Source: Schmidtea nova
Lineage: Eukaryota
Length of the DNA stretch: 64,000 nt
Direction of reading: 5' to 3'
Assembly: GCA_044892505.1 (NCBI GenBank)
Contig: CM097882.1
Coordinates: 572,880,001 to 572,944,000, forward strand
The position numbers and the translations under genes are program-made. Positions 41,618-62,021 of this stretch are shown here, in pieces. The notes beneath the pieces are model-generated. The model was not told the DNA's origin, ran no database searches, and was given only the letters and a program-made list of their open reading frames with translations. The stretch's first letter is position 1, and every line of letters begins with the position of its first letter.

Positions 41618-42000
41618 ATTGATCAAAATTTAATTATTGTCGGTTGATTATAATTTTAATATTGAATAGTAATTTTTTAAATTTTATTTCATATGATTAT
41701 ATGTAAGATTTAATAATTTAATAATTTTTTTATTTTCAGACTATAGATTAAAAATATATTTTCATCTTATTTAAAGCAATATATTTGATAAAGGGAGTGC
41801 CGAAAAATTCGTTTGAATAGAAAAAAAAATATTTTTGATCTAATGAAAAATAGAAAATAAATGAAATAAATGAAAATAAAATTACCAAAAGATAAGAGAT
41901 AAAGTATGAAATTATTTCATAATTTTTTTTTACATAGTATATCATTGAAAGAAATATAAATGGTGCCTTAATGAAATTTTTAATTGACAGTATAATTTTG

Positions 42001-42747
42001 GGTGTCAGGACGAAATTACACAAGACGAAATTACACAAGACGAAATTACACGAGACGAAATTACACAAGATGAAATTACACGAGACGAAATTACACAAGA
42101 TGAAATTACACTGAGACGAAATTACACTGAGACGAAATTACACGGGATGAAATTACACAAGACGAAATTACACTAATAATAATTTTTAATAATTTATTAA
42201 TAATTTATTAATAATTTAATAATTTAATTATTATTAATTATTATTATTAATTATTATTAATTATTATTAATTATTATTAATTATTATTAATTATTATTAA
42301 TTATTATTAATTATTATTAATTAATTATTATTAATTATTATTAATTATTATTAATTATTATTAATTATTATTATTAATTATTATTAATTATTATTAATTA
42401 TTATTAATAATTATTAATAATTTAATAATTTATTAATAATTTATTAATAATTTATTAATAATTTATTTAAACTTTTTACGCATTTTTTTTATTAAACTTT
42501 TTATTAAAACTTTTTATTAAACTTTTATTAAAATTTGAACTATCTTTTTAATTTTATTTTTTACTATTTTTTAGTGTAATTTCGTCTTGTGTAATTTCAT
42601 CCCGTGTAATTTCGTCTCAGTGTAATTTCGTCTCAGTGTAATTTCATCTTGTGTAATTTCGTCTCAGTGTAATTTCATCTTGTGTAATTTCGTCTCGTGT
42701 AATTTCGTCTTGTGTAATTTCGTCTTGTGTAATTTCGTCATGTAACC
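42001..42747. mobile_element. Foldback/Mutator-type non-autonomous element
   Basis: Perfect 9-bp TSD ataattttg (41992-42000, 42748-42756). Long TIRs built of ~15-bp tandem units gacgaaattacacaa around an (attattaatt)n centre. Confidence 0.9.
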
Positions 42748-42824
42748 ATAATTTTGGTATTTGAGTGTAAAGTCATTTACATTCATATAGAAAACATAAT
42801 AAATATTATTGAATTGACATTTAA

Positions 42825-43269: not shown

Positions 43270-44916
43270 GACGAATGACTCCGTTGTTCTTACAATATTG
43301 CCAAACTAATTTCTAAATCAGGGAATCCGCATTTAATTGGAGAGAAGCTTCTTTTACCTGTCGTAGAAGAAGTGTTGCGCACTAGTACATCATAGCTCTC
43401 CTAGTGTCATCACCAAATCTATTCGTCTCAGTGATGATACTGTTCGAAGAAGAATTGATGAAATGGCTGAAGATATTGAAGAAAGTTTGTGATATTCTGA
43501 AAAAACAAAGATTTGGCCTGCAACTGGATGAATCTACGCTACCAGGCACTGAAGCACTGCTCTTGGGTTATGCTCGTTTTATAAAAGATAATAAAGTAAT
43601 GCAAGAATTACTGTTTTCTAAGGAGTTGGAAACAGACACTCGAGGTGCGTCTATTTTTACGGCAGTTAAACAATTCTTCAAAGAACAAGATATACCAATG
43701 AAAAACATCATTGCTTGTGCTACAGATGGTGCTCCCGCATTAACAGGAAAACACAGGGGATTTCTTTCTTATTTAAAAATGGCAGCACCAGACGTTTTTA
43801 CGATACATTGTGTAATTCATCGACAGCATTTGGTTGCCAAAACATTGAGCTGTCGTCTTCATAATTCCCTCAGTATTGTTGTAAAATCAGTGAATAAAAT
43901 TAAGAATTAACCCCTCAATTCTCGAATATTACGTCAATTGTGTGATGAGAATAACGAAGAATTTGACAGTCTCCTTCTTCATACCGAGGTGAGATGGTTA
44001 TCCAAAGGAAACTGTTTTAAACGATTTTATTCTCTGTTCGGCACAATCGTGCAATTTTTACAGGAAATTAAATGCAGTGATTTGAGTGCTGATCTCTTGG
44101 CATGCAAAACGGATATTGCGTATTTAACTGATTTATTCTGTATATTCTATGATTTAAATTTGCACCTCATTAAGGCAAAATCTAAATTTTGTAATTTCAG
44201 CGAAAACATTGGTCGTTGGAATTTGTCTCATTTTCCAACTCTTAAACTACAAATTGCTGACACTGATACTTCTTTAGTAGATGACGACCTCTTGATTTAT
44301 TGTGATCATTTGAAATCTCTGATTGAAAGATACAAAGATCTGATAAATATGGAAATCCCGGACTGGATGCTAAATGCATTTACATATGTTTGTGGAAGTG
44401 ATACTAATCTTGTAATTCAAGAAGTCTTAATTGCTGTAAAGAACGACTGTGAATTGAAACCTCTCTTCAAAAAATCGTTCGCGGATTTTTGGTCGCAGAA
44501 AGAAATTCCTGAAAGATATCAAAATTTGTGGGAGGCAATTAAACTTTATTTTCTTGCTTTCTCATCGTCTTACATGGCTGAACGCGGATTTAGTGCGGTT
44601 TCTAAACTTCTTACCAAGCAAAGAAATTGCCTGCAAATTGTAAAAAGGGGAAATTTGAGACTACATCTAAGCAACATCGATCTTAGAGTGAGTGAATTGG
44701 TTGCAAAACATCAGTGTCATCCATCTCACTAAAAGTTCTGAATAAAAGTTGAGTTTATCAAACATTGTTCTGCACTATTAAAATTTATTTACATGTAACA
44801 CATTTTGCAATTTAATACATTTTGTATATTATATAATTAAATAATTTTTAGGGGGCGGTGGCAAATCAAATTGTGTCTTAAGGGGGTGATGGTTAAAAAA
44901 AGTTTGAGAAACACTG
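43270..44916 (+). mobile_element. Decayed hAT (Charlie/Buster, ZBED5/SCAND3-like) transposon, 3' portion
   Basis: FGLQLDEST, ACATDGAPAL, IHCVIHRQHL, HTEVRWLSKG, SYMAERGFS, HQCHPSH*. Right TIR tttgagaaacactg ends at 44916. The left end was not found. Confidence 0.85.
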
Positions 44917-45924
44917 AACTCGAGTATCCTTTTTAATAAAGGTTGAAATTTGATTCTTGAGTAATAAAGAAATAGGACGAGAAACACTAAAAATGAGATC
45001 TCATTTGCTATGCGACAAAAATCAAATGGATGAAGGAAAGATGAGAGTGACGATATTTAGATTAAAATTTGTTTAAATATTGCAGTTTTTGAATATAATA
45101 TATTTTTGGAAATAACGTCTTATATTATGATTAATAATGGAAATGTTTCTATGAGAAATTCCAAATTTAATAAAGATTACATAAACTAAGAGAAACCATA
45201 TGAATACATAACTTTAATTTTGCAAAATATTTACTTTTTCACAAATAAAATAATTCTTGCTGGAATAGATGAACTGGCGGAGATAATTCCAAGCCTTGAT
45301 TCGATAGGGATGATATTTATCCATGATAAAATCCAGATCTACAACAAACATAGTTAAATCATTTTATTGTGGTAAAATCATATCAAGCGTGTTGTTGATA
45401 TTATAAAAACTACAATAGAACAAATAAAATTTGACCGTACGTTAGGGAAAAAGAGAAGATATGCGTATGGTAAATAATTTACTAAAAAAATATCGTACGC
45501 GTATTGTACGTTCCTATTCCGCACTTATGATGAGCTTTGAATATTTGTTTATTCTGGTGAGTTGTTGATCATCAATATGACCTTGACGTCGTTATGGCTC
45601 ATCATCAACAACTCAACATACAAAGCATTAGTTTAAACATCTTGTTGCCGTCACAATGTAACGTTGGTAATGTAACAAATGGGTGGATTTCCGCAAACTG
45701 TGAGCGTCGAAAAATCAAGACTATGATTGACCGAAAATCGAAATGGGTTCAAGGGCCACCGATAGAAGGTTTAATGCCCATTTAATTCCCTCATTCATCA
45801 ATTAATCTATACAAATTGAATACCGGAAATTTTAACAAATATTCACATCAATAATAATTTATTATTACATCAAAGTAAACTATTTTCCAACATCAAAATA
45901 TTAACAAAACCTAATTCATGAAAG

Positions 45925-46778
45925 TGTTGGGGTTGTTATAATCACAGAAAATAAAATTAAAATTGCACAAATCAATAAAAATATAAAAATTGGAAAAATA
46001 ATAATTAATGTTCAAACATTAATTAAAAACTTTACAAAAAATTAAAATAAAGTTTGAGCGAGGGAAACTGGTATGGGAAGATGCCAAATGAGGAGACGAA
46101 TTCAAATATGGGTATATAAAATTGAAATAGGACCCCCAGAAAGAGAAATTAAGAAAATACAAATTAATTAAAAAATAATTAATCGTCTAATGGAAAACCC
46201 GAGCCAATGGGAAACCCGAGCCTATGGGAAACCCGAGCGATGGGGGAAACCCGGGGCATCAACAAAATCATTTAATTATCGAAATAAATTTAATGCCCCG
46301 AGAAGAGACGAAAAACCATTAGCGGCGAAACTCAATTAGGCGGCGGTCAAACAAATTTAATTATCTCATTTTCTCCAGATCCAATTAAGCCGACAGGATG
46401 ACAACAAAAAAATAGTATATAAACGGAGAGCAAATTGCCGATATCGCCATTTGGTCAAAGACAAAGTTTCGAGGCCAACCGATTGAAGAATAAAAGTAGG
46501 CAACGTGAATCAAATCGTTAGAAGACATTTGAAGGAGACGTCGAAAGAAAACCAAAAGTAGAGTTTATACTTAATCTATTGCGTGTCAGAGAGGGAGATA
46601 TCCCATTGGGTGTTCTACCCTCACGCGAAGAGTGCAGAACCGGCGTAACTTTTTGTGATAAAAAGAGTTGTGATCAATTGACAAATAAAGAAAGTTATTG
46701 TGTTGGGTCTTGTTTATTTTGTAATTGAAAGAGAACACCGGAGTCAGAAACTACCGACTTAACACCAATAACCCAACA
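45925..46778 (+). repeat. 5' LTR
   Basis: Direct repeat of 62040-62893. Differences seen at 46061/62176, 46378/62493 and 46705/62820. Confidence 0.97.
46416..46423 (+). promoter_or_regulatory. Candidate LTR TATA box (TATATAAA)
   Basis: Mid-LTR position downstream of the repeat array. A similar aaaatagtata(t)aaa occurs in solo LTR 16633-17548. Confidence 0.55.
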
Positions 46779-46782
46779 TATT

Positions 46783-46800
46783 TGGTGAGCCCGACGTGAT
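46783..46800 (+). promoter_or_regulatory. Primer-binding site, tRNA-Trp type
   Basis: TGGTGAGCCCGACGTGAT lies 4 nt after the LTR. Its complement ATCACGTCGGGCTCACCA matches the 3' end of metazoan tRNA-Trp as I recall it (ATCACGTCGGGGTCACCA) at 17/18. Confidence 0.85.
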
Positions 46801-47163
46801 CAGAGTCGGTGAAACGTTGTTAAAAAAAAAATATAATAATAAAGAATCAAAAGAAAATTATTGATAAATCCGACGTGATAAAAGTCGGTGAAGCGTTGCA
46901 AAAAGAAATCGAATATTTATTGGCAAAAAGAAATTAAAAGTTGCTAAAAAGTTTGGAAATTGTGAAATTGATTAAAAGAAAAAAGTCAGTAAATCGAATC
47001 AAGGTTTGATAAAAGTTTGTTGATAATTGTGGAAAGATTTATACTGTTGAAATTAAAATAAAAGGTAAAATTTATAATTGATATATTAAAATTTAGAAGA
47101 GAAAAAGTTGTACCAAACCGACCATATTACGAATTGAGAAGTAATAAACAACCAGAAACAAAA

Positions 47164-50100
47164 ATGAGTAATACAAACAATCAGGATGATACGCCCATGT
47201 CCACCAGCAACGGCAATGGCAATGACTATGCTAGCTGCCAGAAACTGCCAGTAAATCAGTATGGAGGCGATCCAGTGGAATTCGTTGATTTTATGGCGGA
47301 TTACTACATGTACGCTACAGCCTATGGATGGAGCCAAGCGACAATGGTGCAAAGATTGCCACTATATCTGAAGGGAGCAGCGAGAGAAGCCTGGCAACAA
47401 ATTGACAAAAGAACAATTGCGAATGACTGGACGAAATTGAAAGATGCCTTAGCCGCGAAACTAATTGGAGGGGATATAAAACGGATAATGCGGCAGAAGT
47501 TCTATAATCGAGTGCAAAAATCAGAGGAATCGGTAAGTGAATTTGCGTACCACTTGACTACTCTTGCAGAGAAAGCATTCGAAGTAAAGCCGGAACAGAT
47601 TGAAGTGGCAAAGCAGGTGAAAGAATTGTTACAAGACCAGTTCTTAACGGGAGTCAAAAAGGAGATCAAAAAGGCATTATGTTATGTGGACTTCAATAAC
47701 TTTGATGAGTTAATCAAAAAGGCGATGAAAATTGAGTTAAATCTGAAAAGTTCACAGCAAAAATCAGAATCGTTTGCCATCATCAATGAACCCAGAGAAC
47801 GGTCCATAACTCCAGTCAGAAACAATCGGCTTCAGCAATCAATTAGTCCATCACCAACGTTTAGACAAAGATTTGAGCCAAATAAATCAACAAATGTTCA
47901 AATTGATGAAAAAGAGAGGCCAATTCAATGCAGCCATTGCCAACGAATAGGACATCATGTTAATCAATGTTGGTTCAAAAATAGATCTCCAAAAAGTCCA
48001 ACTCCAATTCAGTGTGATTATTGTCAAAGGATGGGACATAACAGCAATCAATGCTGGTCTAAAAACAACGTTCAACGAAGCCCAAAACGAATGTGGCCAG
48101 ATTGGTTGAAGGGTAATGGTGAGAAAAGTTTTAATAAACTAAATTTTAATGATCAGCGTAATAACGATAATGTGCAATGTTACAATTGTGGAAGGAAAGG
48201 ACATGTCTCTCGGAATTGTTTTGCTAGATCGAGGTCTCCATCAACTTCGCCATCCCCACAAAGAGATAGAGTGAACCTTCAAGGGCAAATTCAATGTCAT
48301 TCATGTAGAGGGTATGGACACATGGCTAGATCATGCCCGAGGAATGTCGACAAATTTCAGAAACCTATATTAAAAAAATCAATAAGATTTCAAAATGATA
48401 AACTGCAGACAGACAACGTGGCTTTTGTTCAATCAGATGATTTCAATGAAAAGATTGAAAACCAAGTGAAAGAAATGGGTCGACGTTTAGATCGTTTAAT
48501 GTCCAAGTTTGAATCTGATGATGAATTGGATAATCACATGATGTATGGATCGCAGCAAGACATGACAGAAGCTGACACGACAACTGGGTGTACAAAAGAC
48601 GATTTGGAAAGCGAAAAGGCTACCATGATGATGAAAAGACTTGAGAAATTACTAGAAGCTAGCGTGGAAGAATCATCTAAAATATTGGTATCGGTTAAAA
48701 GCCTGAGTCAAATGTCGTTAAGTATGAGAAAATTGAAAGGCGCGATTAATTTGTGTGCTAATTATTATCAAATAAATGTAACAAATAGAGAAGAAATTAA
48801 AGAATTGATGAGAAAATTTGGGAAAGCGTTTCGAGAAAATAAATGGTTAGATTTTATTTCTATTGATGTTGTTAATGAAAATGATAAAAATGTGATTACT
48901 TGTCGTTGTGAAGCCTATGATCGCGTAAAAGATTTAAAAAGGAGACTAAGAGAGAAATGTGAAGGCTGGGTAGTCGAATTAAAGTTTAAAAATAGAGATT
49001 TAGAAAATGATGAATATTTAATAGATTGTGGTCTTATACCAGGGAACAAAAATGAATTACAAATAGCCAGTATGATGAGTAACAGTGAAATGACAAGAAG
49101 TGATCCGATGCAAATAGTAAAGGAGCTAAATGATGTTTTATGTATTGGTGACGAAAACGAAATTAAAGAAATAGTAAAATTAATAGAGGAATCTGAATTT
49201 GGGCAAAAGGAAAAATTAGAACTTGCTAATGCGATACGACCCTATTTGTTTAGAAGAACGGGATATAGACAATGTTTAAAGAGAATAATGAGAAAATTGG
49301 GTAAAGAGCTTAGAAAAGATAGAGTTGAGTTAAATTCGTTAACAATTGCAATAGAATATGAAGATATTGGGAAAACTGAGTATGTAGAGGAACACTGGTG
49401 TACGAAAGTTCGAAAAGTGCGTAAAAGAGCTGCGGAAATGTTAGGTAAAGATGGAATTATAGTGCTGAGATATAAAGGGGAAGAATTGGATGACGATGAA
49501 TATTTATATGACTGCGGATGTGTGCCACAGGAACTGGATGAATATGGGTATTTAAGTACTAATGGAAGTCAGGGGTATTTGATAAATCGCATAATCGCAA
49601 ATAAAGAATATAATTCGAGGATGCTTGACAAAGTTGAATTTTCAGACACAGATGAGCAAACAGAAGAAATAAAGGAAAGCGAAATTGAAATAGTTACTGA
49701 TGATTATAATGGGGAAAAGAGGGTTAATAATAATGCTCAGACAGCAGAAATGGCAGTTATTGAAGATACAAATATCGAAAAAGGTGAAATAAAAAGTGCG
49801 AATACGAAGACTAGAACATTGTATGAGATGAAGAAAACCTTAGTAAAATTAGAGCAGGAAGTTGAAGAAACAAGTGACGTAATAAGAAATTTGGTTGGAG
49901 TCGTATACCCAATTCTAAAAATAGAAACAGAAACGGAAGAGGAATTGAAAGGAATAGTAGATGAAGTGAAAATCAGACTTCCAGGAGTAGTGCGGAAATT
50001 GGGCAAAGAGGATAGCTTTTGTAACTGTGAAGTAATAGAAAAGTTGATCGAAAATGGGATCGATAAAGAAGTAGTGCTAATAATTCTAACCTACGTTGTT

Positions 50101-53100
50101 TCAGAGATCGGTATTCATGCATTTACAAAGTCAGACAAGCTTGATAATTTAATTGACATTGCGGCTCGACTAATAAATGAGTCTTTAATTAATTGGCTGA
50201 GAGAGCGTGGAGGGTGGAAAACATTAAATTTATCGATAATAAAGAAAAGAAAGAAACCGGAAAATGATTCACCGCAAAGGCAATTAAACGGAAGAGTAAG
50301 TCCAAAACTAAGGAAGACGATGATATTCCCTTGGATAATGTTCATGATGATTATTCTATGTGCAGTTATTGCACAAACGACGTCATTGGTGGCATACGAT
50401 TGTTCACAAACCGAAATGGGGAAAATTTACTCAGTGGTTGATATGTCAGAGTGCCCAGACGCATACCCTCGAAAATTAAAGATTGAAAACGAAGTAAAAT
50501 ACCATGTGTATCAAGAGTCAGATTTACGGCGTACTAAAGTTAGAGAATGCATTGTAAAACGAACCACTTTTGTATTCTTCTGTGGTAAATGGAGCCATAC
50601 GTCATTAATCAAAATGCACGCCATTCCACGACCGGTGGATGTATTGCCGGAAAATTGCTTAACAGCCTTCCAAACGGGGGAATTAAAAATCAGCCCTGAA
50701 ATTCGATTAAAAGCGAAATTAAATCATCAAATTCGAGAAACATTAGTGGTGAAGGGAGTGATGAAATCAGACGGTGACTGTGAAGGTGAACCGTATAAAA
50801 TAAATGAGAAAATAATTAAACACACAGTGGTAATAGAGGAATACTTAACCGAATTGAGAATGTTCGAAGGATCTTTTGATGATGATACCGGAAAACTACA
50901 AACTCACCCATTTTGTAATATGAAGCAAACTAGTTGTCACACGGGAGAGTCAATCCTCGTTTACGATGTTAAAACCAATATATGTAACCTGGCTCATTTA
51001 AAAACAATGAATTTCAAAGAGTTAACCGGAGAGCAATTTAGGGAGAGACCAGACAACTTTAATATGAATTATAAACAAAATGGCACAGTAAGGTCAACTC
51101 CACTGTGGACAAGACAAACAGCGATGGTTTTAATGTCAACCTTGCCAACGGACAGCATGCGCTTTATTAAAAAGGAGATTACGAGCAAATGTGGTCAAAC
51201 AGTCTATGTAACAAATTACAAAGGAGTATATGTGGCAAAAACGACTGTACATGAAGCGAAGACGAGAATTCACAGAGATGATATAAAACTAACTCATTAT
51301 TTTAATAATAAAATTGATTATTTATTTCATTTTAGCCAAAATACCATGGAGAACATATATAGAGAAATGATCTTGAACGATTGTAAATTGAATAAAGAAA
51401 TACTTCGAAATCGAATGGCGATGGCGGTTACAAACCCGAATTTAGTAGCACCCATGCTAATTTCAGAAAATGGTATATTTGCTAGAATCTTTGGAGAAGC
51501 GCTATACAGTTACCGATGCAAAGAAATTACAGTGAAAATCGCAAAATATGAGAAATGTACAAATGAATTGCCAGTAAGTGTTGGCGGGAAACTACGATTT
51601 ATGGAACCGATAACCCGAATACTGCTGGAGGAACAAGTTAAACCAAAAACCTTGCAATGTAATCGATTATTAGCTCCATTATATCGCTTAGCACAAGATT
51701 CATGGATAGCGCTACCAGATTACCGAGGAGTAAGAACACCAGATAAATTGGAATTGACGAATTTGGAATACTTAATAAATTTTACATCAATGAATAAAAT
51801 GGCACAAATGGGTTTATATGCGAGCGAAGACATCGAAGAAGCCCAAAGAAATTTGTTATTTCCGTCAAAAAAGGAACGCGTGATTTCAGAAATGATTGAT
51901 ACCATATTGCCGAATGGAGAAGGGAAAGTTAACTACGAATACTTGCTGACACCTGATCATTTTAAACGAGCTACTTACAAAACAATGGAAAAGATTTGGG
52001 GAAAATTTATGTTTTTGGGACAAGCCTGTGCAGGTTTAATTGGTATTTATGTAATTGCAGTAACGGTAAAGGTGATAATATCACAAGTATTGTCCACTCA
52101 CAGGATATATACAATTTCCGGATGGTCATGGAAAATGATAATTGGTTGTATTCCATTTTTGGCTAGATTCTTCATTACAAGTCATCAATACAAAGAAATG
52201 GCAAATGTACGAGCGCAATTGAGAAATGATCAGAAAAGCGAAGAATCAATATGCGATCATGAGGATAAAAATAATGGTCCTGATAATGAGAACGGTGGCG
52301 GCAGATCAGAGCAAAATAATTTTCGAAGGAGCATAATGAAAAGTAGAATAGAACCCGAAACCAGGCTCTTGCTTGAACCAATGCCAAAATTAACAGGAAT
52401 TGACACTCTTTCTAAATGGTACACACCAACATTAATACCAACAGCTCCAATATACCCAAGTGAAAAGTTGAGAGAAATGAAGCCAGTTGATGAGATTAAA
52501 ATCGAACTAGAAAAGATTGAGCCATCAAGCGCCGAAATTGAAAGAAAGAACATGCTTGGGTTACCATGTAGTTACGCATTGATGACAATAGAAATTGGAG
52601 GAAAACAACCTAGAATATCCATACAGTTTAATGAAAGAAAAGTGGAAGCATTATTGGATTCAGGCTCGAGTCACAGTATAGTATCGGAGAGTTTCTTAAC
52701 GAGACAGGAAAAAGCGAAAATAAAGCCAACAACAAAAATTATTAAATCAATGACGCATAACGTATTAAATATTATTGGAAAACTAGAAGTAAAGTTGAAT
52801 ATAGGAAATCAGGAAGTAATTCATTGGGTATCAGTAATGAGAAAAAGCCCTGTCAAATGTTTGATTGGCATGGATATCATGGAACAATTACAAGGAATCT
52901 CACTGGACTTAAAGACGGGCAAATTAATAAAAAGGCAGACTGATGAGGTAGTGCATGAAGCAGGAGAGGTCTTTTTAAATCAAACGTTGGAAGTACCACC
53001 AAAAAGCGAAGTGATATACTACGCTAATGTAGAAAATGTTTCCGAAGAAGAGTGTATATTCGAACCAAATCAAAAACTAATAGAAAAGTACGACGTACCT

Positions 53101-56100
53101 ATGTGTGACGAAATAGTAAAAATTAAAGACAAAACCGTGCCAGTAAGAATAGCTAATTGTAGCACAAAATCTGTTCAGATGAAACCCAAAACAAAGTTGG
53201 GAAAACTGTCAAAAATGAAAGGGGAAGAAGTGCAAAAACTACCTAGAAATATCAAAATCTATAAAGAACCACAAGTGACAAGTGATGATCTAACAGAGGC
53301 ACAAAGACAAGAATTTGCGGCATTATTGAAAAGGTATAAAAATGCATTCGCGAAACATGAGTATGATCTAGGACTCACTCAGATAATTGAACACGAAATA
53401 CCATTGCTTGATGAAACTCCTATAAAAATACGACCGTACAGAATTCCATATATACATCAAGAAGAAAGCGATCGGCAAATTAAAGCCATGAAGGAATTCA
53501 AAATAATAAGAGATAGTTCATCACCATTCTCATCCTCAATAGTAGTAGTGAAAAAGAAGGACGGTGAATTACGATTTTGTGTTGATTATCGGAAATTAAA
53601 CCAAGTGACAAGAAAAGACACATATCCTATACCAGTTCCGCAAGAAATGTTTGATCAGATGGGAGAAGTACAATTCTTCACAGTAATCGATCTTAACAAA
53701 GGATATAACCAATTTAAAGTCAAAGAGGAAGACAGGAGAAAAACGGCATTTTCAGATGGGAAAGGACTATATGAGTTTAATGTGCTGCCATTCGGTCTAA
53801 CGGGAGCACCAGCTACATTCCAGAGAGGTATGAATTTTGTTTTGCGTGATATACCACATGCATTAGTCTATATTGATGATATAATAATATTTTCAAACAA
53901 TTTTCAGGGACACTTAAAAGATGTGGAAATAGTGTTTAAACGACTAATAGAAGCCAATTTAAAAATAAAACCTTCAAAATGTGAATGGGGAAAATCAGAA
54001 GTTGTTTACGTAGGGCACATAATTTCACGGAGAGGGTTACAACCAAACCCAGAAAATGTAGAAAAGATCAAAAAGTATCCGATCCCCAAAGATGCGGATC
54101 AAGTCCGACAATTTCTTGGATTAGCGAGCTATTATAGGAAATTCATAAGGAATTTTTCTCATGTAGCACAACCTTTAAACATGTTGCTAAAAAAGCAGAC
54201 TAAATTCAAATGGGTAACAGCTCAACAAGAAGCATTTGATAAATTAAAAGAGAGTCTTATTAAACAACCAATATTGAGATGTCCGAACTTCAAAAAACCA
54301 TTTATACTGATGACAGATGCAAGCAATTTTGCATTAGGAGCAGTACTTGGACAGCAAGTAGAAGGTGAGAAAGATCACGTAATTGCTTATGCAAGCCGTT
54401 CATTAAAACCGCATGAAAAAAATTATTCCACAATCGAAAAAGAAACGCTAGCATTAGTATATGGGATAACTAATTTTCGACAATATTTGGTTGGGAGAAA
54501 GTTTATTGTATTTACGGATCATAACCCATTACAATGGTTAATGAAGCATCGAGATTCGGCAAGCAAGCTGATTAGGTGGTCAATTGCATTACAGGAGTAC
54601 GATTTTGAAATTAAGTACCGTACGGGGAAGTCAAATGGAAATGCGGACGCAATGTCGAGAATCCCTGAAGAAAATATTATTCAAAATGAAGTAAATTATG
54701 AAAATACGATATTTATGGCAATTAAAACGGCAAATAATATGAAGGAATTACAGGGTGATCAGGAAAACGATGTTGAAGTGAATCAATTGCGGAAACATGC
54801 TGTCACAATAAAAAGAGAAAGTGACTGGAAGCACATTGCGAAAGAAAAACATAAATACGTCATCCATGACGGGTTGTTGAAATGTGTGAAAAATGAAAAC
54901 TTATTAATAGTAGTACCGGCAAAACATCGAACAGCATTACTGTTGTTGTATCATGATGGGGCATTGGGAGGGCATTTATCTGCTCGAAAAACATTATCAA
55001 GATTAAAACAGAAATATTACTGGGATACGATAGAGCAAGACGTCAGACAATGGTGTCACACTTGTGAAGTTTGTCTGACCAGGCGAAACACAGGAAGAAA
55101 AATAAAAGTTCCTTTAAAACCTATGACCGTGCCGGTAGCACCAATGGAAATGACAGCAATGGATATTGTTGGTCCACTACCAGAAACAACCAATGGCAAT
55201 AAATATATCATCGTATTTTGTGATTACCTAACAAAATGGCCGGAAGCATATGCAATGCAGAATCAAAAGGCAGAAACTGTTGCGAAAATATTTGTAGAAA
55301 ACATCATATTTCGGTACGGAGCACCAAGAAAATTGCTCACAGACCAAGGAACAAACTTTCAAAGCGAATTATTTAAATCTATAACCGAATTATTCGGAAT
55401 CCTAAAACTTAATACATCCCCATATCACCCACAAACAGATGGGTTAGTCGAAAGATTTAATGGAACATTAATTAACATGATTTCGTCGTATGTAAACAGG
55501 AAACAAAAAGATTGGGATTTGTTCATTAAGCCATGTTTGTTTGCATATCGAAATGCAGTGAATGAAAGCACCGGTGAAACACCATTTTATCTTATGTACC
55601 TACGACGAAACAATATGCCGATTGACTTAAAGTTTCAACCACCAATCTCACAATACATGGACGTATCCGATTACAAAGTAGTAATGCAGGAAAGACTGCA
55701 ATCAGTATGGGTCAAAGCGGGATTGAAAATAAGGCATAATCAAGAAGCATATAAAGAATGCTATGATAAACGTGCGCATGCACATGATATTAAAGTTGGA
55801 GATTTGGTGTACATAAATAAACCAGAGCCAACGAAAGGGCTGTCTACCAAACTACAGCGACCATTTAAAGGACCTTATTTGGTGTGTGATACAACCGAGA
55901 CGAATTTAAAATTGCGTCCACAAAATAATAAAAAGGCGGGAACGATTGTCATTCATGTAAACCGATGTAAGAAAGTTCCGCTGGAAGAAAGATATCCCTT
56001 GAGGTCAAAACCAAGTAACGGCGAAAAAGAAAAAGTAATTAAACAAAAATTTACAAAAAACCCTACTCAATTAAACTACCTAAGTAAAACGTTGTTGATA

Positions 56101-57267
56101 ACAACAGTGATGATGATCAATGTTTTGTGTGCGTCGGCAATACGAACATTCCCAGCATATGCAATGAAGAAAGTCCCATTATTAGAAAAGATCGATGTGT
56201 ATTCAACATGTACCCAAATAGTATGGATCTATTATTGCGAAGTGACGGAAGAAATAGAGATAAATAATCTGCTAAACTATTTCGAGCCCCCAGTAAAATT
56301 AAACTATAACAAAAATACACATGTCGCTCGTGAATTAGCAATGAATTATAAATACCCTTGGATAATAACACGAGTGAATCTTAAAGATAATTTGACAAGA
56401 GTCCATGATCTAATACGTGTCAGTGTATGGACAAAAAGACTACAAGACCGCGTATCCATTGAACCAGTAATCAATGGAATTAATGTATATTGGAACTCTC
56501 ATGAATCCCAGCAAGTAAAAACTGTCTTTCAAAATTATGCTATCGATACACTGAACAGCAGAAAACCATTTATAAAATATGTTAATTTAAAATTATTTCA
56601 GATGTATAATATTCAGATACAATATTTTGAAAAGTTGTTGTATGAAAATGGAACAGACAGCACCGATCAGTGGGTTCTAATCCATTCCAGTCAACACACG
56701 ATAAACTTGATCAATGAAACAAACAGAGTTATCTTTCATGTGTATAATCAGACGATAAATGTCACCCGTCAAACGTACCCCAATCAAAGAGCTGTTTTAT
56801 ACTATTGTGGAAAAGTACAAGGAATATTAGAGAACAGAAATGAATCAAAGATCTTATCTTTCCGACAACTACGGTCAAAATCAAACTCTAAAATAGTGCT
56901 AATAAAAATCAAGTATTATCGGCGAGCCAAATACTCCAATCTTTGGCAATTAACCTTGGTAGAGGATAAATTTGTTCGAGTGTCATATACTGAGATGGAC
57001 AGTTACCCACGGAAGTTAAATCAATCAACGCGAATCACAACCGCTCACATCAAGGTGTTAAATCCAAGCAATAAAACTATATCAGCTTCACCTACGGAAA
57101 ATGAATTTCTATGTGTAACATTATTAATAACAATTATCATTATAACAATATTTGTCATTATTCTCATATCTGTCATCATCTTTGAAATTCGAAAAACTGA
57201 AAGACATTCTACGAATCAATCCGAGGCCCCGAGACCTTGGATCGATTACGAGGAGACGTTTGTATAG
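47164..57267 (+). CDS. Single polyprotein Gag-Ubl-Ubl-Bcl2-like-Env-PR-RT-RH-IN-second glycoprotein, 3367 aa from the first ATG
   Basis: Uninterrupted 10.1-kb ORF. The track start at 47134 is a TTG; the first ATG is at 47164. Domains are listed separately. Confidence 0.95.
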   Translation: MSNTNNQDDTPMSTSNGNGNDYASCQKLPVNQYGGDPVEFVDFMADYYMYATAYGWSQATMVQRLPLYLKGAAREAWQQIDKRTIANDWTKLKDALAAKLIGGDIKRIMRQKFYNRVQKSEESVSEFAYHLTTLAEKAFEVKPEQIEVAKQVKELLQDQFLTGVKKEIKKALCYVDFNNFDELIKKAMKIELNLKSSQQKSESFAIINEPRERSITPVRNNRLQQSISPSPTFRQRFEPNKSTNVQIDEKERPIQCSHCQRIGHHVNQCWFKNRSPKSPTPIQCDYCQRMGHNSNQCWSKNNVQRSPKRMWPDWLKGNGEKSFNKLNFNDQRNNDNVQCYNCGRKGHVSRNCFARSRSPSTSPSPQRDRVNLQGQIQCHSCRGYGHMARSCPRNVDKFQKPILKKSIRFQNDKLQTDNVAFVQSDDFNEKIENQVKEMGRRLDRLMSKFESDDELDNHMMYGSQQDMTEADTTTGCTKDDLESEKATMMMKRLEKLLEASVEESSKILVSVKSLSQMSLSMRKLKGAINLCANYYQINVTNREEIKELMRKFGKAFRENKWLDFISIDVVNENDKNVITCRCEAYDRVKDLKRRLREKCEGWVVELKFKNRDLENDEYLIDCGLIPGNKNELQIASMMSNSEMTRSDPMQIVKELNDVLCIGDENEIKEIVKLIEESEFGQKEKLELANAIRPYLFRRTGYRQCLKRIMRKLGKELRKDRVELNSLTIAIEYEDIGKTEYVEEHWCTKVRKVRKRAAEMLGKDGIIVLRYKGEELDDDEYLYDCGCVPQELDEYGYLSTNGSQGYLINRIIANKEYNSRMLDKVEFSDTDEQTEEIKESEIEIVTDDYNGEKRVNNNAQTAEMAVIEDTNIEKGEIKSANTKTRTLYEMKKTLVKLEQEVEETSDVIRNLVGVVYPILKIETETEEELKGIVDEVKIRLPGVVRKLGKEDSFCNCEVIEKLIENGIDKEVVLIILTYVVSEIGIHAFTKSDKLDNLIDIAARLINESLINWLRERGGWKTLNLSIIKKRKKPENDSPQRQLNGRVSPKLRKTMIFPWIMFMMIILCAVIAQTTSLVAYDCSQTEMGKIYSVVDMSECPDAYPRKLKIENEVKYHVYQESDLRRTKVRECIVKRTTFVFFCGKWSHTSLIKMHAIPRPVDVLPENCLTAFQTGELKISPEIRLKAKLNHQIRETLVVKGVMKSDGDCEGEPYKINEKIIKHTVVIEEYLTELRMFEGSFDDDTGKLQTHPFCNMKQTSCHTGESILVYDVKTNICNLAHLKTMNFKELTGEQFRERPDNFNMNYKQNGTVRSTPLWTRQTAMVLMSTLPTDSMRFIKKEITSKCGQTVYVTNYKGVYVAKTTVHEAKTRIHRDDIKLTHYFNNKIDYLFHFSQNTMENIYREMILNDCKLNKEILRNRMAMAVTNPNLVAPMLISENGIFARIFGEALYSYRCKEITVKIAKYEKCTNELPVSVGGKLRFMEPITRILLEEQVKPKTLQCNRLLAPLYRLAQDSWIALPDYRGVRTPDKLELTNLEYLINFTSMNKMAQMGLYASEDIEEAQRNLLFPSKKERVISEMIDTILPNGEGKVNYEYLLTPDHFKRATYKTMEKIWGKFMFLGQACAGLIGIYVIAVTVKVIISQVLSTHRIYTISGWSWKMIIGCIPFLARFFITSHQYKEMANVRAQLRNDQKSEESICDHEDKNNGPDNENGGGRSEQNNFRRSIMKSRIEPETRLLLEPMPKLTGIDTLSKWYTPTLIPTAPIYPSEKLREMKPVDEIKIELEKIEPSSAEIERKNMLGLPCSYALMTIEIGGKQPRISIQFNERKVEALLDSGSSHSIVSESFLTRQEKAKIKPTTKIIKSMTHNVLNIIGKLEVKLNIGNQEVIHWVSVMRKSPVKCLIGMDIMEQLQGISLDLKTGKLIKRQTDEVVHEAGEVFLNQTLEVPPKSEVIYYANVENVSEEECIFEPNQKLIEKYDVPMCDEIVKIKDKTVPVRIANCSTKSVQMKPKTKLGKLSKMKGEEVQKLPRNIKIYKEPQVTSDDLTEAQRQEFAALLKRYKNAFAKHEYDLGLTQIIEHEIPLLDETPIKIRPYRIPYIHQEESDRQIKAMKEFKIIRDSSSPFSSSIVVVKKKDGELRFCVDYRKLNQVTRKDTYPIPVPQEMFDQMGEVQFFTVIDLNKGYNQFKVKEEDRRKTAFSDGKGLYEFNVLPFGLTGAPATFQRGMNFVLRDIPHALVYIDDIIIFSNNFQGHLKDVEIVFKRLIEANLKIKPSKCEWGKSEVVYVGHIISRRGLQPNPENVEKIKKYPIPKDADQVRQFLGLASYYRKFIRNFSHVAQPLNMLLKKQTKFKWVTAQQEAFDKLKESLIKQPILRCPNFKKPFILMTDASNFALGAVLGQQVEGEKDHVIAYASRSLKPHEKNYSTIEKETLALVYGITNFRQYLVGRKFIVFTDHNPLQWLMKHRDSASKLIRWSIALQEYDFEIKYRTGKSNGNADAMSRIPEENIIQNEVNYENTIFMAIKTANNMKELQGDQENDVEVNQLRKHAVTIKRESDWKHIAKEKHKYVIHDGLLKCVKNENLLIVVPAKHRTALLLLYHDGALGGHLSARKTLSRLKQKYYWDTIEQDVRQWCHTCEVCLTRRNTGRKIKVPLKPMTVPVAPMEMTAMDIVGPLPETTNGNKYIIVFCDYLTKWPEAYAMQNQKAETVAKIFVENIIFRYGAPRKLLTDQGTNFQSELFKSITELFGILKLNTSPYHPQTDGLVERFNGTLINMISSYVNRKQKDWDLFIKPCLFAYRNAVNESTGETPFYLMYLRRNNMPIDLKFQPPISQYMDVSDYKVVMQERLQSVWVKAGLKIRHNQEAYKECYDKRAHAHDIKVGDLVYINKPEPTKGLSTKLQRPFKGPYLVCDTTETNLKLRPQNNKKAGTIVIHVNRCKKVPLEERYPLRSKPSNGEKEKVIKQKFTKNPTQLNYLSKTLLITTVMMINVLCASAIRTFPAYAMKKVPLLEKIDVYSTCTQIVWIYYCEVTEEIEINNLLNYFEPPVKLNYNKNTHVARELAMNYKYPWIITRVNLKDNLTRVHDLIRVSVWTKRLQDRVSIEPVINGINVYWNSHESQQVKTVFQNYAIDTLNSRKPFIKYVNLKLFQMYNIQIQYFEKLLYENGTDSTDQWVLIHSSQHTINLINETNRVIFHVYNQTINVTRQTYPNQRAVLYYCGKVQGILENRNESKILSFRQLRSKSNSKIVLIKIKYYRRAKYSNLWQLTLVEDKFVRVSYTEMDSYPRKLNQSTRITTAHIKVLNPSNKTISASPTENEFLCVTLLITIIIITIFVIILISVIIFEIRKTERHSTNQSEAPRPWIDYEETFV
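47242..48336 (+). other. Gag: capsid-like region plus four CX2CX4HX4C zinc knuckles (47929-48336)
   Basis: YGGDPVEFVDF...LPLYLKGAAREAW, RVQKSEESVSEF, DQFLTG. Knuckles CSHCQRIGHHVNQC, CDYCQRMGHNSNQC, CYNCGRKGHVSRNC, CHSCRGYGHMARSC. Confidence 0.92.
48853..49065 (+). other. Ubiquitin-like domain 1 in the polyprotein
   Basis: ISIDVVNENDKNVITCRCEAYDRVKDLKRRLREKCEGWVVELKFKNRDLENDEYLIDCGL follows the ubiquitin pattern (..ITLEV.PSDTI..VK.KI...LIF.GK.LED..TL.DY.I). Confidence 0.75.
49339..49596 (+). other. Ubiquitin-like domain 2 in the polyprotein
   Basis: TKVRKVRKRAAEMLGKDGIIVLRYKGEELDDDEYLYDCGC is paralogous to domain 1 (L.[FY]K...L..DEYL.DCG). Confidence 0.7.
49900..50230 (+). other. Bcl-2-like domain
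   Basis: BH2-like LINWLRERGGW (50185-50217) is preceded by a hydrophobic helix (GIDKEVVLIILTY, BH1/alpha5 position) and a BH3-position helix (VVRKLGKE), and followed by a hydrophobic anchor. Confidence 0.65.
50386..52180 (+). other. Chuvirus-type (class III-like) envelope fusion glycoprotein with preceding signal segment (50320-50385) and TM (52006-52090)
   Basis: LVAYDC start, DGDCEG, CGQTVYVT, FNNKIDY, DCKLNKEILRN..AMA..NP, GEALYSYRC, CTNELPV..FMEPITRIL, GLYASEDI....LLFP, WGKFMFLG...AGLIGI, GWSW. This motif order is the one I recognise from chuvirus glycoproteins. Confidence 0.85.
52580..52920 (+). other. Aspartic protease
   Basis: VEALLDSGSSHSIV (DSG at 52657-52665) and LIGMD. Confidence 0.92.
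53400..54200 (+). other. Reverse transcriptase (Ty3/Gypsy type)
   Basis: SPFSSSIVVVKKKDGELRFCVDYRKLN, LPFGL..APATFQR, YIDD (53869-53880), YVGH, FLGLASYYRKFI. Confidence 0.97.
54300..54670 (+). other. RNase H
   Basis: LMTDASNFALGAVL, YSTIEKETLA, VFTDHNPL, NADAMSR. Confidence 0.96.
54940..55980 (+). other. Integrase (HHCC, DDE, GPY/F)
   Basis: YHD..GGH, CHTCEVC, MDIVGPLP, TDQG, YHPQTDGLVERFN, FKGPYLV. Confidence 0.96.
56092..57267 (+). other. Second predicted type I membrane glycoprotein fused after integrase
   Basis: Signal-like LLITTVMMINVLCASA, then ~320 aa with 8 N-X-S/T sequons, then a 28-aa hydrophobic TM (57106-57189) and a 25-aa tail. Family not recognised. Confidence 0.7.
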
Positions 57268-57663
57268 TGAGATACAATTATTTGCATGCAATTATGGTAG
57301 ATTAATAGTTTAGTATCTAGTGACATTTTCTTTTATAATTGTTTCATGTGGATCTGCACTCTTCGGCATGGGAAAGTGGGAAAGTGATTTGATTGGCTAA
57401 TACTAAAAGAGTGAGGGGGTAGAAAAAGGGATAGAAAAATCAAAAGGGGGGTATATAAGGTAAACTTAGACATCATAAAATTTAAATTAATCTTAAACAA
57501 AAGTAAAATTTCAAATAACTAAGAAAACTTCAATTAAATCGGTAATTTTATATTTTTATTTATACCGCTACCAACTAAGACAGTATCCTTTGGGTACTCC
57601 ATCTTAGTCCTAGCGTCAAAATTAAATTAATTCAAATTTAAATTATAATCGTTTTAGTAAGAA

Positions 57664-59112
57664 ATGGAGCAGATACAATGGGCCAGAGAAACGTACGACA
57701 GCTATCTGAAGATGATGAGAAATCATGCCGGCCAAAGAAGATTCCAGATAGTCAACAATTTGCAAATTCCAAATTATCTAAGGTTGGACGACAGAAAAAT
57801 GAAAGTCCAAGTATTCACTATAGACAGAAAATCAAAATTTCAAATGACAAAGGAACTAAAAATATCAGATAAAGACGAATACTATATCCACGTCATCAGA
57901 GGGACGGTGGAAATTCTAGACGAAAATGATCAAATATGGTGGGAGATCAAAAAACTTTCGTCATGGAAAATCAAGGAGCCAGCAATCGGGAAAATATTAC
58001 GAGCAGCAAACGAGGATGCCACAATTGTAGTGGAAACAAGGATCAAAAACGAAATTGATGATGTACCCAGCGAGGAGCCAATGCAGAAAGAAAATCTTGA
58101 ACTCCTACAAATAACAAAGGAAATGTTAAAAAGAAAATTGTCCTTTATTCGGAGGGAAATGGGTATAGAAGAAATTCGGAACAAAATATTGTTCATTGAT
58201 GCCGAATATGGAACCAGCATGACTGGAAAGATGATTCCCTTGGCGGTGGCCATTATGAACTATTACGGGAAAGTTGTGAAAAATGTCTTCTTAACACCTA
58301 GAGGAAGACTCAAACATTTCAATTCAAACATCCATGGAATAACGGAGGTGGCGAGCCGAAATCAAAAAGACCAGTACGAAGAGATGAAGGAAATCCAAAA
58401 ACTGACAATCGGGAAAATACTCGTAGGACATGACCTACATGCAGAATTACAATTCCTAGGGATATGGGTAAATCATCTTTATGGCATACGGGATCTAGCT
58501 ACTGCTCAAGCGTTGCAATTGAAAGGAGTGACAAGAAGAGGGGAATGGTATAAGCTCAAAACCATAATGAAGGAACTCTATGGAGAAGAGATGCAAATGG
58601 GTATTCACTCAGCTTTAGAGGACGTCAAAAGCATTCGGAAGATATATTTGGGACTAGAAAACCTTTGGATCGATGATATATCAATGCCTAAGATAGGGCC
58701 ATCAAAAAAGTATTCATTGCAAGAATATAAAACTAGGCAACATATGGAATCGATATCTGAAATTCCCAGATTAGAAAGAACGATAATGATCGTAGACGAG
58801 ACAAACATGGAAGTGGATGAAATAGATACAGGAACAGAAAAGAGTAATCAAAAGTTGAAATGGGCAACTGAAATGTATTTAGAGGAGATTGAAGAGAATT
58901 GCGAATGGATGGAATCCACAAAATTAACAAGAATCCAATTATCGATGGAATATGGCCCAATGGAACAAAAGGAGGATCGCAAAAGGAAAGCTTCAGCATC
59001 CAACGTCGACGTCGGGGAAACAATGACCATCAACGGGGTGGTGTATGAAAAAGAAGAAACAATTATCAGATATCGAAATGGGGCAAAGCGGCTGGAAATG
59101 AAAATGAACTAA
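57664..59112 (+). CDS. ORF2, 482 aa, with a central REX4/ISG20-like DEDDh 3'-5' exonuclease domain (~58186-58650)
   Basis: FIDAEYG (Exo I), IHGIT, KILVGHDLHAEL (Exo II), IRD, YKLKT, MQMGIHSALED (Exo III). Confidence 0.85.
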   Translation: MEQIQWARETYDSYLKMMRNHAGQRRFQIVNNLQIPNYLRLDDRKMKVQVFTIDRKSKFQMTKELKISDKDEYYIHVIRGTVEILDENDQIWWEIKKLSSWKIKEPAIGKILRAANEDATIVVETRIKNEIDDVPSEEPMQKENLELLQITKEMLKRKLSFIRREMGIEEIRNKILFIDAEYGTSMTGKMIPLAVAIMNYYGKVVKNVFLTPRGRLKHFNSNIHGITEVASRNQKDQYEEMKEIQKLTIGKILVGHDLHAELQFLGIWVNHLYGIRDLATAQALQLKGVTRRGEWYKLKTIMKELYGEEMQMGIHSALEDVKSIRKIYLGLENLWIDDISMPKIGPSKKYSLQEYKTRQHMESISEIPRLERTIMIVDETNMEVDEIDTGTEKSNQKLKWATEMYLEEIEENCEWMESTKLTRIQLSMEYGPMEQKEDRKRKASASNVDVGETMTINGVVYEKEETIIRYRNGAKRLEMKMN

Positions 59113-62021
59113 AATTATATTAATTATATATGTGATTATTTATAAATAAATTTAGTAATTCTGTCTCAGTTCGTTAAAATGGCGCCCACCGGTCAAACCC
59201 CCACAACAAAAAAAAATTTTTTTTTTAATAAATAAATAAAACACAAAAAAGAATTGAATAAATAAAAATTCTGAAGCTAAATAAAAACCAACAACCTTTA
59301 ATCACCGGGGGTGTACTCTCCTGGACANNNNNNNNNNNNNNNNNNNNNNNNNNNNNNNNNNNNNNNNNNNNNNNNNNNNNNNNNNNNNNNNNNNNNNNNN
59401 NNNNNNNNNNNNNNNNNNNNNNNNNNNNNNNNNNNNNNNNNNNNNNNNNNNNNNNNNNNNNNNNNNNNNNNNNNNNNNNNNNNNNNNNNNNNNNNNNNNN
59501 NNNNNNNNNNNNNNNNNNNNNNNNNNNNNNNNNNNNNTCATTATACGGTCACTATAAGTGCGATATCAAAAGATAATTTCGATCCTTATAAGTAGTATAT
59601 ACAATGATTAAAATTCAGGACGAAATAAAAACAAAAAACTCTAAATCAATCTCCCTGAGTAGTGATTGAAAGTTGTCAATTATTATATTATAGTTATTAA
59701 TCAGATTATTGGTATTATATCGTCAAAGGGATGATGGAATCAATAAAACAAACATTGGCAAAAAAAAAATAAATAAATAAATAAAACAGAATAAAATAAT
59801 AATAAAATGAAATTATCATAAATATCATAAAAGCATAAGGCGAAGACAGTTATTATTAAATTCATCAACATTGTGATCACATTATTAGAATATCACTCTA
59901 TTATCATTAGTAGTATAAGGGGCATTATCATTATTATTATTATTATTGTTGTTGTTGTCATTGTTGCTATATGATGACAATTTTAAATCTAAATAAAAAC
60001 CAACAGCCCTTAATCGCCGGGATCATACTCTCCTGGACAGCGATTGAGGGTTGCCAGTTATTATTGTTATTATTATTATTATTATTATTATTGTTATTAT
60101 TATCATTATTATTATTATTATTAATTGATAGTATTGTTAATTTTTCAATAATTAATTTTTCCAATAATAGTTTATTAAAGATTTATCGAGGCCCTCTACA
60201 CATATACTAGTCAGCTTGTTAAGGGAAATCTGTCTAAGGTCAGATCCTGCTTAGTCGACACACACCAACACAGGATTTTTGCCTTTCGATGAGAATTTTC
60301 CCCATACACCGACATATTATCTATCTTTAAAGTATCATTGATATTAAAAACTAGGAAAATAAAAGGATTTTCAAAAAATTATTAATTAATTTACAAAAAA
60401 AATCAATTATTCTGTCAAAATTATTTTGACTTTTCATTCAATTTTTGACAATCTGAAATTAAAATATATCGATATAAAATAGTCGCAAATATCAATTTTT
60501 AATCAATATTTCTATTTTAGTACTAGTCAATTGTGACAGCTGTAGTCGCGTCTTTTCTGAGAGCTTTTCATCACTTTTCAATATTAAAAATTTAAAAAAA
60601 AAAATAAATAAATAATAAACAAAATATATATAAATATGTATAAGTATAAAAAGAGTATACGTATATATATATATATGTATATGTATATGTATGAGTATAG
60701 GTGTATATATATGAATATATAGATAAAAGTCAATTAAATAAAATGAAATAAAATTTACTTATTGTTATTATAAATGATATTTTCAAAATTTCAAAATGAA
60801 TAATAATTGAAATTCATAAACTTTCCCCTGGTTTTCTAAATAAGAAATTAATTCGTTTCTGGAAATACTATTAATTAACACATATCATCGCCAAATTGTC
60901 TATAATGAATCGGCTTTTCAAGATGACTAAATATAAAATGAAGCCTCGAGTAAGTTTGCGAGCAATGATCGATTGATATTCCGTCTGATCACTAGTCTGC
61001 GGGGGGATACATGGAACCAGATGGTGGACAGGTTCTGGATTGATGATGTGCACGGGTAATACGATGATCCCATATGGTAGCATTAGTTGAAATTGCCATT
61101 TCATGGTCTTTATGATCAATTATTGCTGCCTTTGTGTCTACAATGTCGGAAATATCGATAATGACGCAGCCGCTACTCCAGTAATTATTTTCCTCGACGA
61201 TTATAAAATAATGAGAGAAAAAATTCTTTCGCGTCGCTTATATTTGCGGCGCCCTCTCTCATCTTTGGGAATTAACTGAATTTGATCTCGCAATTATTCT
61301 CTGTAGAATGACAGTCCCAAAATCTAATTATCTTCCAAGCTGAGAGTAATTGAATTTCAGTGACGGTTCGAATTTTTACCCGTTACTATATCAACCAAAA
61401 AAAAATGAAATTTAATAACAGTTCTTGAATAATTTTGTTGACATTTTCCTATGCGCATTTTTCGTGTTCTTCATCTACGAAAATTAATTGCATTTCGCTC
61501 CAGAATTTTCCCTGGAGAATTTATATTGAATCATTAATAGAAAGCACGAGTTTGCAGATGCCCAATCTTAGAATTTGATTTTATGAAAAGAATTCGGANN
61601 NNNNNNNNNNNNNNNNNNNNNNNNNNNNNNNNNNNNNNNNNNNNNNNNNNNNNNNNNNNNNNNNNNNNNNNNNNNNNNNNNNNNNNNNNNNNNNNNNNNN
61701 NNNNNNNNNNNNNNNNNNNNNNNNNNNNNNNNNNNNNNNNNNNNNNNNNNNNNNNNNNNNNNNNNTGGTTATTATTATTAATATTAGTACTATCATTAGT
61801 ACTGNNNNNNNNNNNNNNNNNNNNNNNNNNNNNNNNNNNNNNNNNNNNNNNNNNNNNNNNNNNNNNNNNNNNNNNNNNNNNNNNNNNNNNNNNNNNNNNN
61901 NNNNNNNNNNNNNNNNNNNNNNNNNNNNNNNNNNNNNNNNNNNNNNNNNNNNNNNNNNNNNNNNNATTGTTAGGAGGTATGATCAAAAATATGTGTATAT
62001 GTAGATTCGAGGACGAATCTT

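Follow-up and report, generated by a model that had tools for sequence, protein, structure and literature searches.

The window, a stretch of 64,000 nucleotides from Schmidtea nova (contig CM097882.1), contains an intact, young Ty3/Gypsy retroelement that has been copied recently. The element lies on the forward strand, as do all of the features described below, and measures 16,969 bp (~17 kb) with both long terminal repeats (LTRs) included. The LTRs are 854 bp long, have TG...CA ends (5' LTR, 45925-46778; 3' LTR, 62040-62893) and differ from each other at 3 of 854 bases (851/854 identical). A 4-bp target-site duplication, AAAG, is found at 45921-45924 and again directly 3' of the 3' LTR. The primer-binding site (46783-46800) begins with TGG and presumably resembles the 3' end of tRNA-Trp, and a polypurine tract (62021-62039) precedes the 3' LTR. 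Together with a Gag followed by protease, reverse transcriptase, RNase H, and integrase (PR-RT-RH-IN), these features are those of a Ty3/Gypsy element.

Between the LTRs, one frame is free of stops from 47062 to 57267 (3,401 codons), and from its first methionine, at 47164, it encodes a polyprotein of 3,367 amino acids without stop or frameshift (47164-57267). Pfam assigns to it, in order, Gag, CCHC knuckles, a weak Bcl-2 match, the glycoprotein family Monjiviricetes_fusion (PF24664), protease, RT, RNase H, and integrase. A sequence-only reading of the window had proposed a stop-free frame running through a glycoprotein into the protease, and a gag-env-pol order in a Gypsy backbone; both proposals hold, and the open frame extends from gag to the integrase. 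In a genome search with PF24664, 68 loci were scored out of 3,412 candidates, and 17 of the 68, the window copy included, share the unbroken 3,401-codon frame, which is therefore no assembly artefact. Most of the 30 loci fetched show 95-99.6% amino-acid identity, and many genomic copies carry stops or frameshifts. The window copy represents family A; sister families B and C are 75-82% identical across the polyprotein, family F is 62% identical, and families D and E are about 36% identical. Giant relatives, about 5,000 aa in length and equipped with MATH and ankyrin domains, follow the same plan. One such giant from the same genome (~4,993 aa) carries a 33% identical PF24664 envelope in the same slot, which is occupied by a PF24664 glycoprotein in every genomic family whose frame is undeleted, the ~5,000-aa giants included.

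The polyprotein opens with Gag (47164-48345), which comprises a capsid domain and CCHC knuckles (Pfam PF03732, E 1e-6, and PF00098, E 2e-6; four knuckles can be read by eye, and two are scored by Pfam). Two weak ubiquitin-like repeats follow (aa ~596-662 and ~757-824; 48847-49533). They have no Pfam match in the window copy, and weak ubiquitin matches (E 0.1 and 0.028) appear in sister families only; the second repeat is kept as far as the distant families. The Bcl-2-like domain (49921-50217) retains the BH2 motif, with a degenerate BH1. Its Pfam match stays below the cut-off in the window copy (E 6e-4) and reaches E 9e-6 in one relative, and a family profile of six sequences, compared with the PDB, retrieved Bcl-2, Bcl-xL, and Bax (E 4e-5). 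The domain ends ~35 aa upstream of the signal-like segment of the envelope. The earlier placement of the glycoprotein as an in-frame insertion between Gag and protease is thus right in position, but the two do not adjoin, as about 660 aa of cargo separate Gag from the envelope. On the other side lie the aspartic protease (52603-52896; Pfam PF00077, PF13975), RT and RNase H (53548-54600), and an integrase with H2C2 finger, core, and C-terminal part (54913-56016), the latter enzymes again assigned by Pfam. The spacer between PR and RT has no Pfam match; a possible dUTPase-like domain at 52954-53241 is suggested by position only, as in the planarian element Burro (PMC6431247).

Downstream of the polyprotein, ORF2 (57664-59112; 482 aa) encodes an ISG20/REX4-like DEDDh exonuclease domain (~58171-58680), which matches ISG20L2 (E 2.6e-7) and has glutamate as its third acidic residue. 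The exonuclease is present in families A-F and was not found for the giants within the stretches fetched. A splice-acceptor-like site (57652-57657) lies 6 nt before the ORF2 ATG; it recurs at this place in families A, B, and C, and the same pattern occurs at 2 of 97 polyprotein ATGs. ORF2 is thus spliced-looking, and its product may be made from spliced RNA. Bdelloid LTR elements likewise have an accessory 3'-5' exonuclease ORF (ORF3) after pol, with the D-to-E motif variation seen in ORF2, but the bdelloid enzyme is described as RNase D-like DEDDy (Rodriguez et al. 2017, PMC5408684), whereas ORF2 is of the DEDDh type.

The stretch originally flagged as a glycoprotein (50320-52180, corresponding to aa 1087-1707) had been described as a Cys-rich ectodomain bounded by a signal-like segment and a transmembrane segment (TM). 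Both boundaries were recovered. The internal signal-like segment (aa ~1087-1106; 50320-50379), recognized by hydropathy, is predicted to be cut by signal peptidase immediately upstream of the mature N-terminus, and in alignments it coincides with the signal peptides that named chuvirus glycoproteins (G) carry. The TM (aa ~1652-1677; hydropathy 2.2) is part of a segment at 52003-52278 in which membrane-proximal region, anchor, and conserved cytosolic tail are arranged as in chuvirus G. The ectodomain between them (50380-52002) is assigned to the chuvirus-related, HSV gB-type class III proteins by Pfam, homology, and predicted fold. It contains 2 sequons and 14 cysteines, 13 of which are at least 90% conserved among 100 homologues; at 2.6%, however, the cysteine richness is modest. 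Every motif of the chuvirus series listed by the sequence-only reading could be found by eye in the translation.

Homology searches bear out the chuvirus-type identity proposed for this protein. Pfam PF24664 matches with about 294-295 bits (cut-off 27; E 9e-88), covering positions 5-633 of the 653 in the profile. A phmmer search against 1.84 billion representatives gave 1,414 matches at E up to 0.001, and among the best 150 of these the best full-length matches are retroelement polyproteins. A protease or RT follows the glycoprotein in frame in 10 of 18 long matches scanned. Named chu-like virus glycoproteins account for four of the 30 matches looked up, with 24-27% identity: those of Tacheng tick virus 4 (E 1e-39), Lishi spider virus 1 (E 8e-38), soybean thrips chu-like virus 2, and Wufeng shrew chuvirus 2.

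Consistent with these matches, the glycoprotein is predicted to adopt a class III fold (gB/G-like, with a long central helix and a beta-rich fusion domain). An AlphaFold2 model of the ectodomain, built from a 100-row alignment, reached a pLDDT of 90.9. Compared with solved structures (PDB), the model retrieved herpes gB as top match (E 1e-14, probability 1.0, TM ~0.45, 10-13% identity), and among predicted viral structures (BFVD) the top matches were G proteins of chu-like viruses (TM up to 0.76). Significant profile and structural matches to chuvirus or class III proteins, on which the sequence-only reading had staked its case, thus exist, the structural ones for a modelled fold. The sequence profile also matched herpes gB (E 0.005); searching solved structures with the ectodomain as a single sequence returned nothing relevant, whereas profile and fold did match gB. 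Between families, the glycoprotein is under strong purifying selection. The ectodomain is 85% identical to that of family B (pN 0.087, pS 0.668), with a dN/dS of ~0.06, and TM and tail are 92% identical with a dN/dS of 0.04, both ratios being rough because dS is near saturation.

We consider it likely that the envelope is an intact, long-resident gene of a compact Burro-like Ty3/Gypsy element, which encodes a predicted class III glycoprotein within one Gag-cargo-Env-Pol polyprotein and which would fuse element particles with neighbouring host cells. The single frame, the homology, the purifying selection, and the recent copying argue for this reading, together with the predicted fold. From hydropathy and alignment, we infer a membrane topology in which Gag, the ubiquitin-like repeats, and the Bcl-2-like domain would be synthesized first, in the cytosol, before the first signal segment starts translocation into the ER. 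Signal peptidase would then free the N-terminus of the mature glycoprotein, whose start aligns with named chuvirus G, and the cut signal segment would stay behind as a tail anchor of the Bcl-2-like domain. Cellular Bcl-2 proteins are tail-anchored. The TM would stop transfer, leaving the fusogen lumenal and PR-RT-RH-IN cytosolic, at first tethered to the same membrane; a second signal segment, discussed below, would export a second surface protein, and the protease of the element would release Gag and Pol. With no frameshift involved, Gag, Env, and Pol would arise in a 1:1:1 ratio, which splicing may shift. Flaviviruses, by analogy, process one polyprotein likewise. That the env signal is predicted to serve a second time, as tail anchor of the Bcl-2-like domain, offers a possible reason for the stability of the gag-env-pol order in these elements. 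The likely purpose would be enveloped spread from cell to cell within an animal, and the Bcl-2-like domain may serve to keep producer cells alive. A weaker hydrophobic stretch (hydropathy ~1.1) follows the TM; were this stretch to span the membrane, Pol would end up on the lumenal side. The missing canonical BH1 and the sub-threshold Pfam score of the Bcl-2-like domain count against the envelope reading, as does the finding that env is not needed in cis for copying.

The latter finding comes from a giant relative family with an in-frame env-less derivative: all three loci checked (3/3) are without G, and the two that were mapped share one junction. This derivative has itself been copied and amplified; therefore, env is dispensable in cis for copying within the genome. 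Intracellular retrotransposition and help in trans would both be compatible with this. Its amplification would also suit a glycoprotein kept folded for something other than entry, be it an ER membrane scaffold or topological spacer that gathers Gag and Pol, or a receptor-blocking or host-cell-fusing protein. Such a role would agree with a Gag made tethered to the ER and with the ectodomain, in which a canonical furin site was not found. Yet a spacer has no need of a 540-aa ectodomain held at a dN/dS of 0.06 with 13 conserved cysteines, and the furin site is often absent in gB-type proteins (PMC13524379). We regard a non-entry role as unlikely on balance.

As to the origin of the envelope, the sequence-only reading had suggested capture from a negative-strand RNA virus or from an element already carrying the gene. 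The best 150 of the 1,414 matches supplied the sample for a tree of G: of 176 candidates, the 142 that covered 430 aa or more of the region were reduced to 124 by removing 18 near-duplicates. In this FastTree phylogeny, midpoint-rooted and hence with an arbitrary root, 20 of the 124 sequences form one clade (SH-like 1.0) that includes the window protein and leaves the four named chuviruses outside; with this root and these four viruses, the window protein is not nested among chuvirus G. Fifteen of the 20 have a protease or RT downstream in frame, and one has a Bcl-2-like domain upstream. Tree distances to the named chuviruses amount to 3.8-4.2 substitutions per site, compared with up to 3.1 within the clade. 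The identities of RT and of G are correlated across 10 elements (Mantel rho 0.69, p 0.003), and the two trees disagree at deep nodes. Because the clade is separate and deep and G covaries with RT, the envelope appears to be a long-standing resident of these elements. Of the two origins suggested, inheritance within a retroelement lineage that already carried the envelope fits these patterns, while a capture from an RNA virus, if any, could only be ancient. A recent capture of a chuvirus G by a Gypsy element, giving rise to a new retrovirus, might be read from the chu-like virus G as best match among viral structures and from a signal, cysteines, and anchor on the chuvirus plan. It is nevertheless very improbable and already largely refuted, given 26-27% identity to named chuviruses against 33-90% to the envelopes of related elements, the separate deep clade, the covariation with RT, and the ancient origin argued for gB-type GAG-ENV-POL elements (PMC13524379).

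Hardly credible at all is a decaying passenger with no current function, as the stops and frameshifts in many copies might suggest, since a dN/dS far below 1 between families already refutes it, alongside many unbroken frames and a confident, complete fold; the downstream Pol forces an unbroken frame, but not amino-acid conservation. The glycoprotein gene is probably functional.

The in-frame layout itself, which the sequence-only reading had implied to be new, is already on record. GAG-ENV-POL elements of the gB type have been described in nematodes, bryozoans, and flatworms (Chary & Hayashi, eLife 2026, PMC13524379), and the window element has the features of such HSV/gB-type errantiviruses: gag-env-pol between LTRs, a gB-like ectodomain flanked by signal and TM, the C1a cysteine pattern, and near-identical copies. 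The closest comparison in that work is Platyhelminthes_Rhabditophora_Smed_errantivirus_1, a Schmidtea element with the same order and an HSV/gB-type envelope. Over env domains I-II, 203 of 251 residues are identical (48 differ, no indels; counted by eye), with the same cysteine positions in the flatworm C1a pattern, and both elements are multi-copy, 45 copies being listed for Smed_errantivirus_1. Smed_errantivirus_1 represents a sister family and not the same sequence. The table of the same paper gives no LTR or primer-binding site for it, whereas both are clear in the window element, and the terms Bcl-2, ubiquitin, exonuclease, and fibronectin are absent from the main text (PMC13524379).

The planarian giants Burro and GYPSM1 also have one ORF with an in-frame env (Arkhipova & Yushenova 2019, PMC6431247). 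As described there, Burro combines Gag with CCHC knuckles, Ubi/SUMO-like and BCL2-like domains, env, and PR-RT-RH-IN. The window element follows this order, with the weak ubiquitin-like repeats in the Ubi/SUMO-like position; the Bcl-2-like domain directly before the in-frame env is a weak but consistent point in common. Burro exceeds 30 kb, however, with an ORF1 of ~4,900-5,100 aa, against 16,969 bp and 3,367 aa in the window, and it carries MATH, BIR, and ankyrin domains (PMC6431247), none of which Pfam detects in the window element with its 854-bp LTRs. The element is thus Burro-like but not Burro, as it belongs to the errantivirus class and has neither the size nor the MATH, BIR, and ankyrin domains of Burro. 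The same paper relates the env of Burro to gypsy Env and to the fusion proteins of mononegaviruses (PMC6431247), whereas the fold predicted in the window is class III. After piwi loss, Burro is expressed in a tissue-specific manner (PMC8532177); passages of PMC11410931 add nothing on env.

With the Jingchuvirales glycoproteins (PF24664), the window protein shares the family profile, cysteine pattern, signal and anchor layout, and predicted fold; unlike them, it falls in its own clade and sits inside a Gypsy polyprotein. The ORFs scanned in the element include neither a viral L gene nor a viral N gene. Anakin BEL/Pao elements are named beside these glycoproteins as a related system (PMC7642597), and chuvirus G insertions are known from arthropods (PMC10084718). 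The layout being known, what the window copy mainly contributes is a compact example that was active recently, whose LTRs are clear and for whose env selection has been measured. Less known are the amplified env-less derivative of a relative, the spliced-looking DEDDh exonuclease ORF, and a membrane protein encoded after the integrase.

This second predicted type I membrane protein (56086-57267) comprises a signal-like segment (56086-56142), an ectodomain of ~320 aa, a TM (~57109-57186), and a short tail that ends in T-x-V in the window copy; the region contains 9 sequons and sits at the usual position of env, after the integrase. No segment of the PR-to-IN stretch of the window exceeds the same hydropathy threshold. 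The succession of signal, ectodomain, TM, and tail recurs in families A-E, in the 4,993-aa giant, and in all three public polyproteins that extend past the integrase (3/3); family F has a flagged TM and a signal segment that was read by eye only. Set as a prediction beforehand, signal, ectodomain, and TM were present at all seven loci (7/7) of a related lineage of giants; as a control, no Gypsy family that is both unrelated and env-less was found. Purifying selection on this ectodomain is weaker, with a dN/dS of about 0.19 that is rough because dS is near saturation. A class I PDZ-type ending, seen in 8/8 of the first genomic ORF ends, was rejected as a general feature, as it is present in 0/3 public polyproteins and 0/7 new loci; the seven new loci end in aliphatic runs, and the general feature is a hydrophobic last residue only. 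A rule that G and the second membrane protein always occur together was likewise rejected, since the env-less derivative keeps the latter.

A fibronectin type III (FN3) fold is suspected for this protein in the window. The post-integrase protein of a giant relative matches Pfam fn3 just under the cut-off (E 2.6e-5; 24.8 bits, cut-off 25), and an FN3-like motif is common to families D and E and to P0003 and P0006. The window copy has no Pfam match to FN3, and a host-FN3 profile scored it no better than shuffles (45/50 reach the score). Its Atlas neighbours are FN3 membrane proteins (0.81-0.85), which we take as a lead only, and a model of the ectodomain from a 10-row alignment reached a pLDDT of 33.8. 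No description of the protein was found in the texts and search listings surveyed; the extended data of Grohme et al. 2018 may cover it or ORF2.

In herpesviruses, gD and gH play the triggering role for gB. By analogy, the polyprotein might supply a two-part envelope, with a conserved gB-type fusogen before Pol and, after the integrase, a fast-changing type I surface protein that would bind targets and trigger fusion. We put this forward tentatively, as a possibility rather than an expectation. No homologue of gH/gL was found. The text of PMC13524379 poses as an open question the means by which gB-type errantiviruses gain entry to cells when they have no partner glycoproteins of the herpes kind; for an answer, the second membrane protein, which is conserved, offers a concrete candidate. 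A two-part envelope, if true, would provide gB-type errantiviruses with the entry partner they are missing, and a spread restricted to certain host tissues might be explained by ectodomains that are specific to each family.

The polyprotein of the Burro-like element continues in frame beyond the integrase into a predicted membrane protein (56086-57267, plus strand), and a predicted membrane protein occupies the same position, in frame and 3' of the integrase, in all families examined, both in the window and at related loci elsewhere in the genome (L058, L060, L062, L064, L066, L104, L106 and L109-L115). It is likewise present in all three public polyproteins that reach beyond the integrase (P0003, P0006 and P0016). 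The ectodomains of these post-integrase proteins are mostly unalignable between lineages, and fibronectin type III (FN3) repeats are detectable in those of one giant family.

Several related public polyproteins contain more than one apparent aspartic-protease-like domain (P0001, P0003, P0004, P0005, P0008 and P0013), and in P0003 one such domain lies 3' of the integrase. P0006 (HBK71150.1) is a gag-env-pol-type animal retroelement polyprotein whose database source is a Flavobacteriaceae MAG, an assignment that probably reflects contamination.

Downstream of the polyprotein, pattern matching identified a splice-acceptor-like site (57652-57666) ahead of the ATG of ORF2, the exonuclease ORF. Families A, B and C (the window; L032, L034 and L068) have such a site 2-6 nt upstream of this start codon, and the same search did not find the pattern in families D, E and F. 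ORF2 is followed by ~2.9 kb of non-coding internal DNA (59113-62039), which contains AT-rich repeats and three N runs and differs in length among element copies. Several dispersed repeats (at 16758, 22269, 28687, 31090 and 39590) resemble the first third of the LTR (45976-46250) with 71-75% similarity; they contain a 17-bp subrepeat and are possibly old LTRs from other families.

Elsewhere in the window, decayed BEL/Pao pieces (PF05380; 31082-39850, minus strand) are flanked by two 85% identical repeats (31118-31261 and 39607-39747), between which lies an aldolase fragment (PF00274; 31329-31826). A long hAT transposase ORF (23369-26008, minus strand) has flanks that match 2997-3872 at 99% in inverted orientation; a broken hAT (43386-44732) and a mariner fragment (18361-18930) are found on the plus strand. 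The large palindrome at 41994-42754, with 15-bp repeats surrounding an AT-rich core, is MITE- or foldback-like. Two oppositely oriented HAD-like hydrolase ORFs (29533-30264, plus strand; 40754-41629, minus strand) are likely host genes.

Comparison of L111/L116, L113 and L118 with L115/L117 revealed an env-less derivative of a giant family, in which an in-frame deletion of ~1,800 codons has removed all sequence lying between Gag and protease, including env. Both mapped env-less loci (n = 2) have the deletion junction in common, and at least six loci carry frames of 3,329-3,343 aa, so the derivative lacking env has in turn given rise to further copies.
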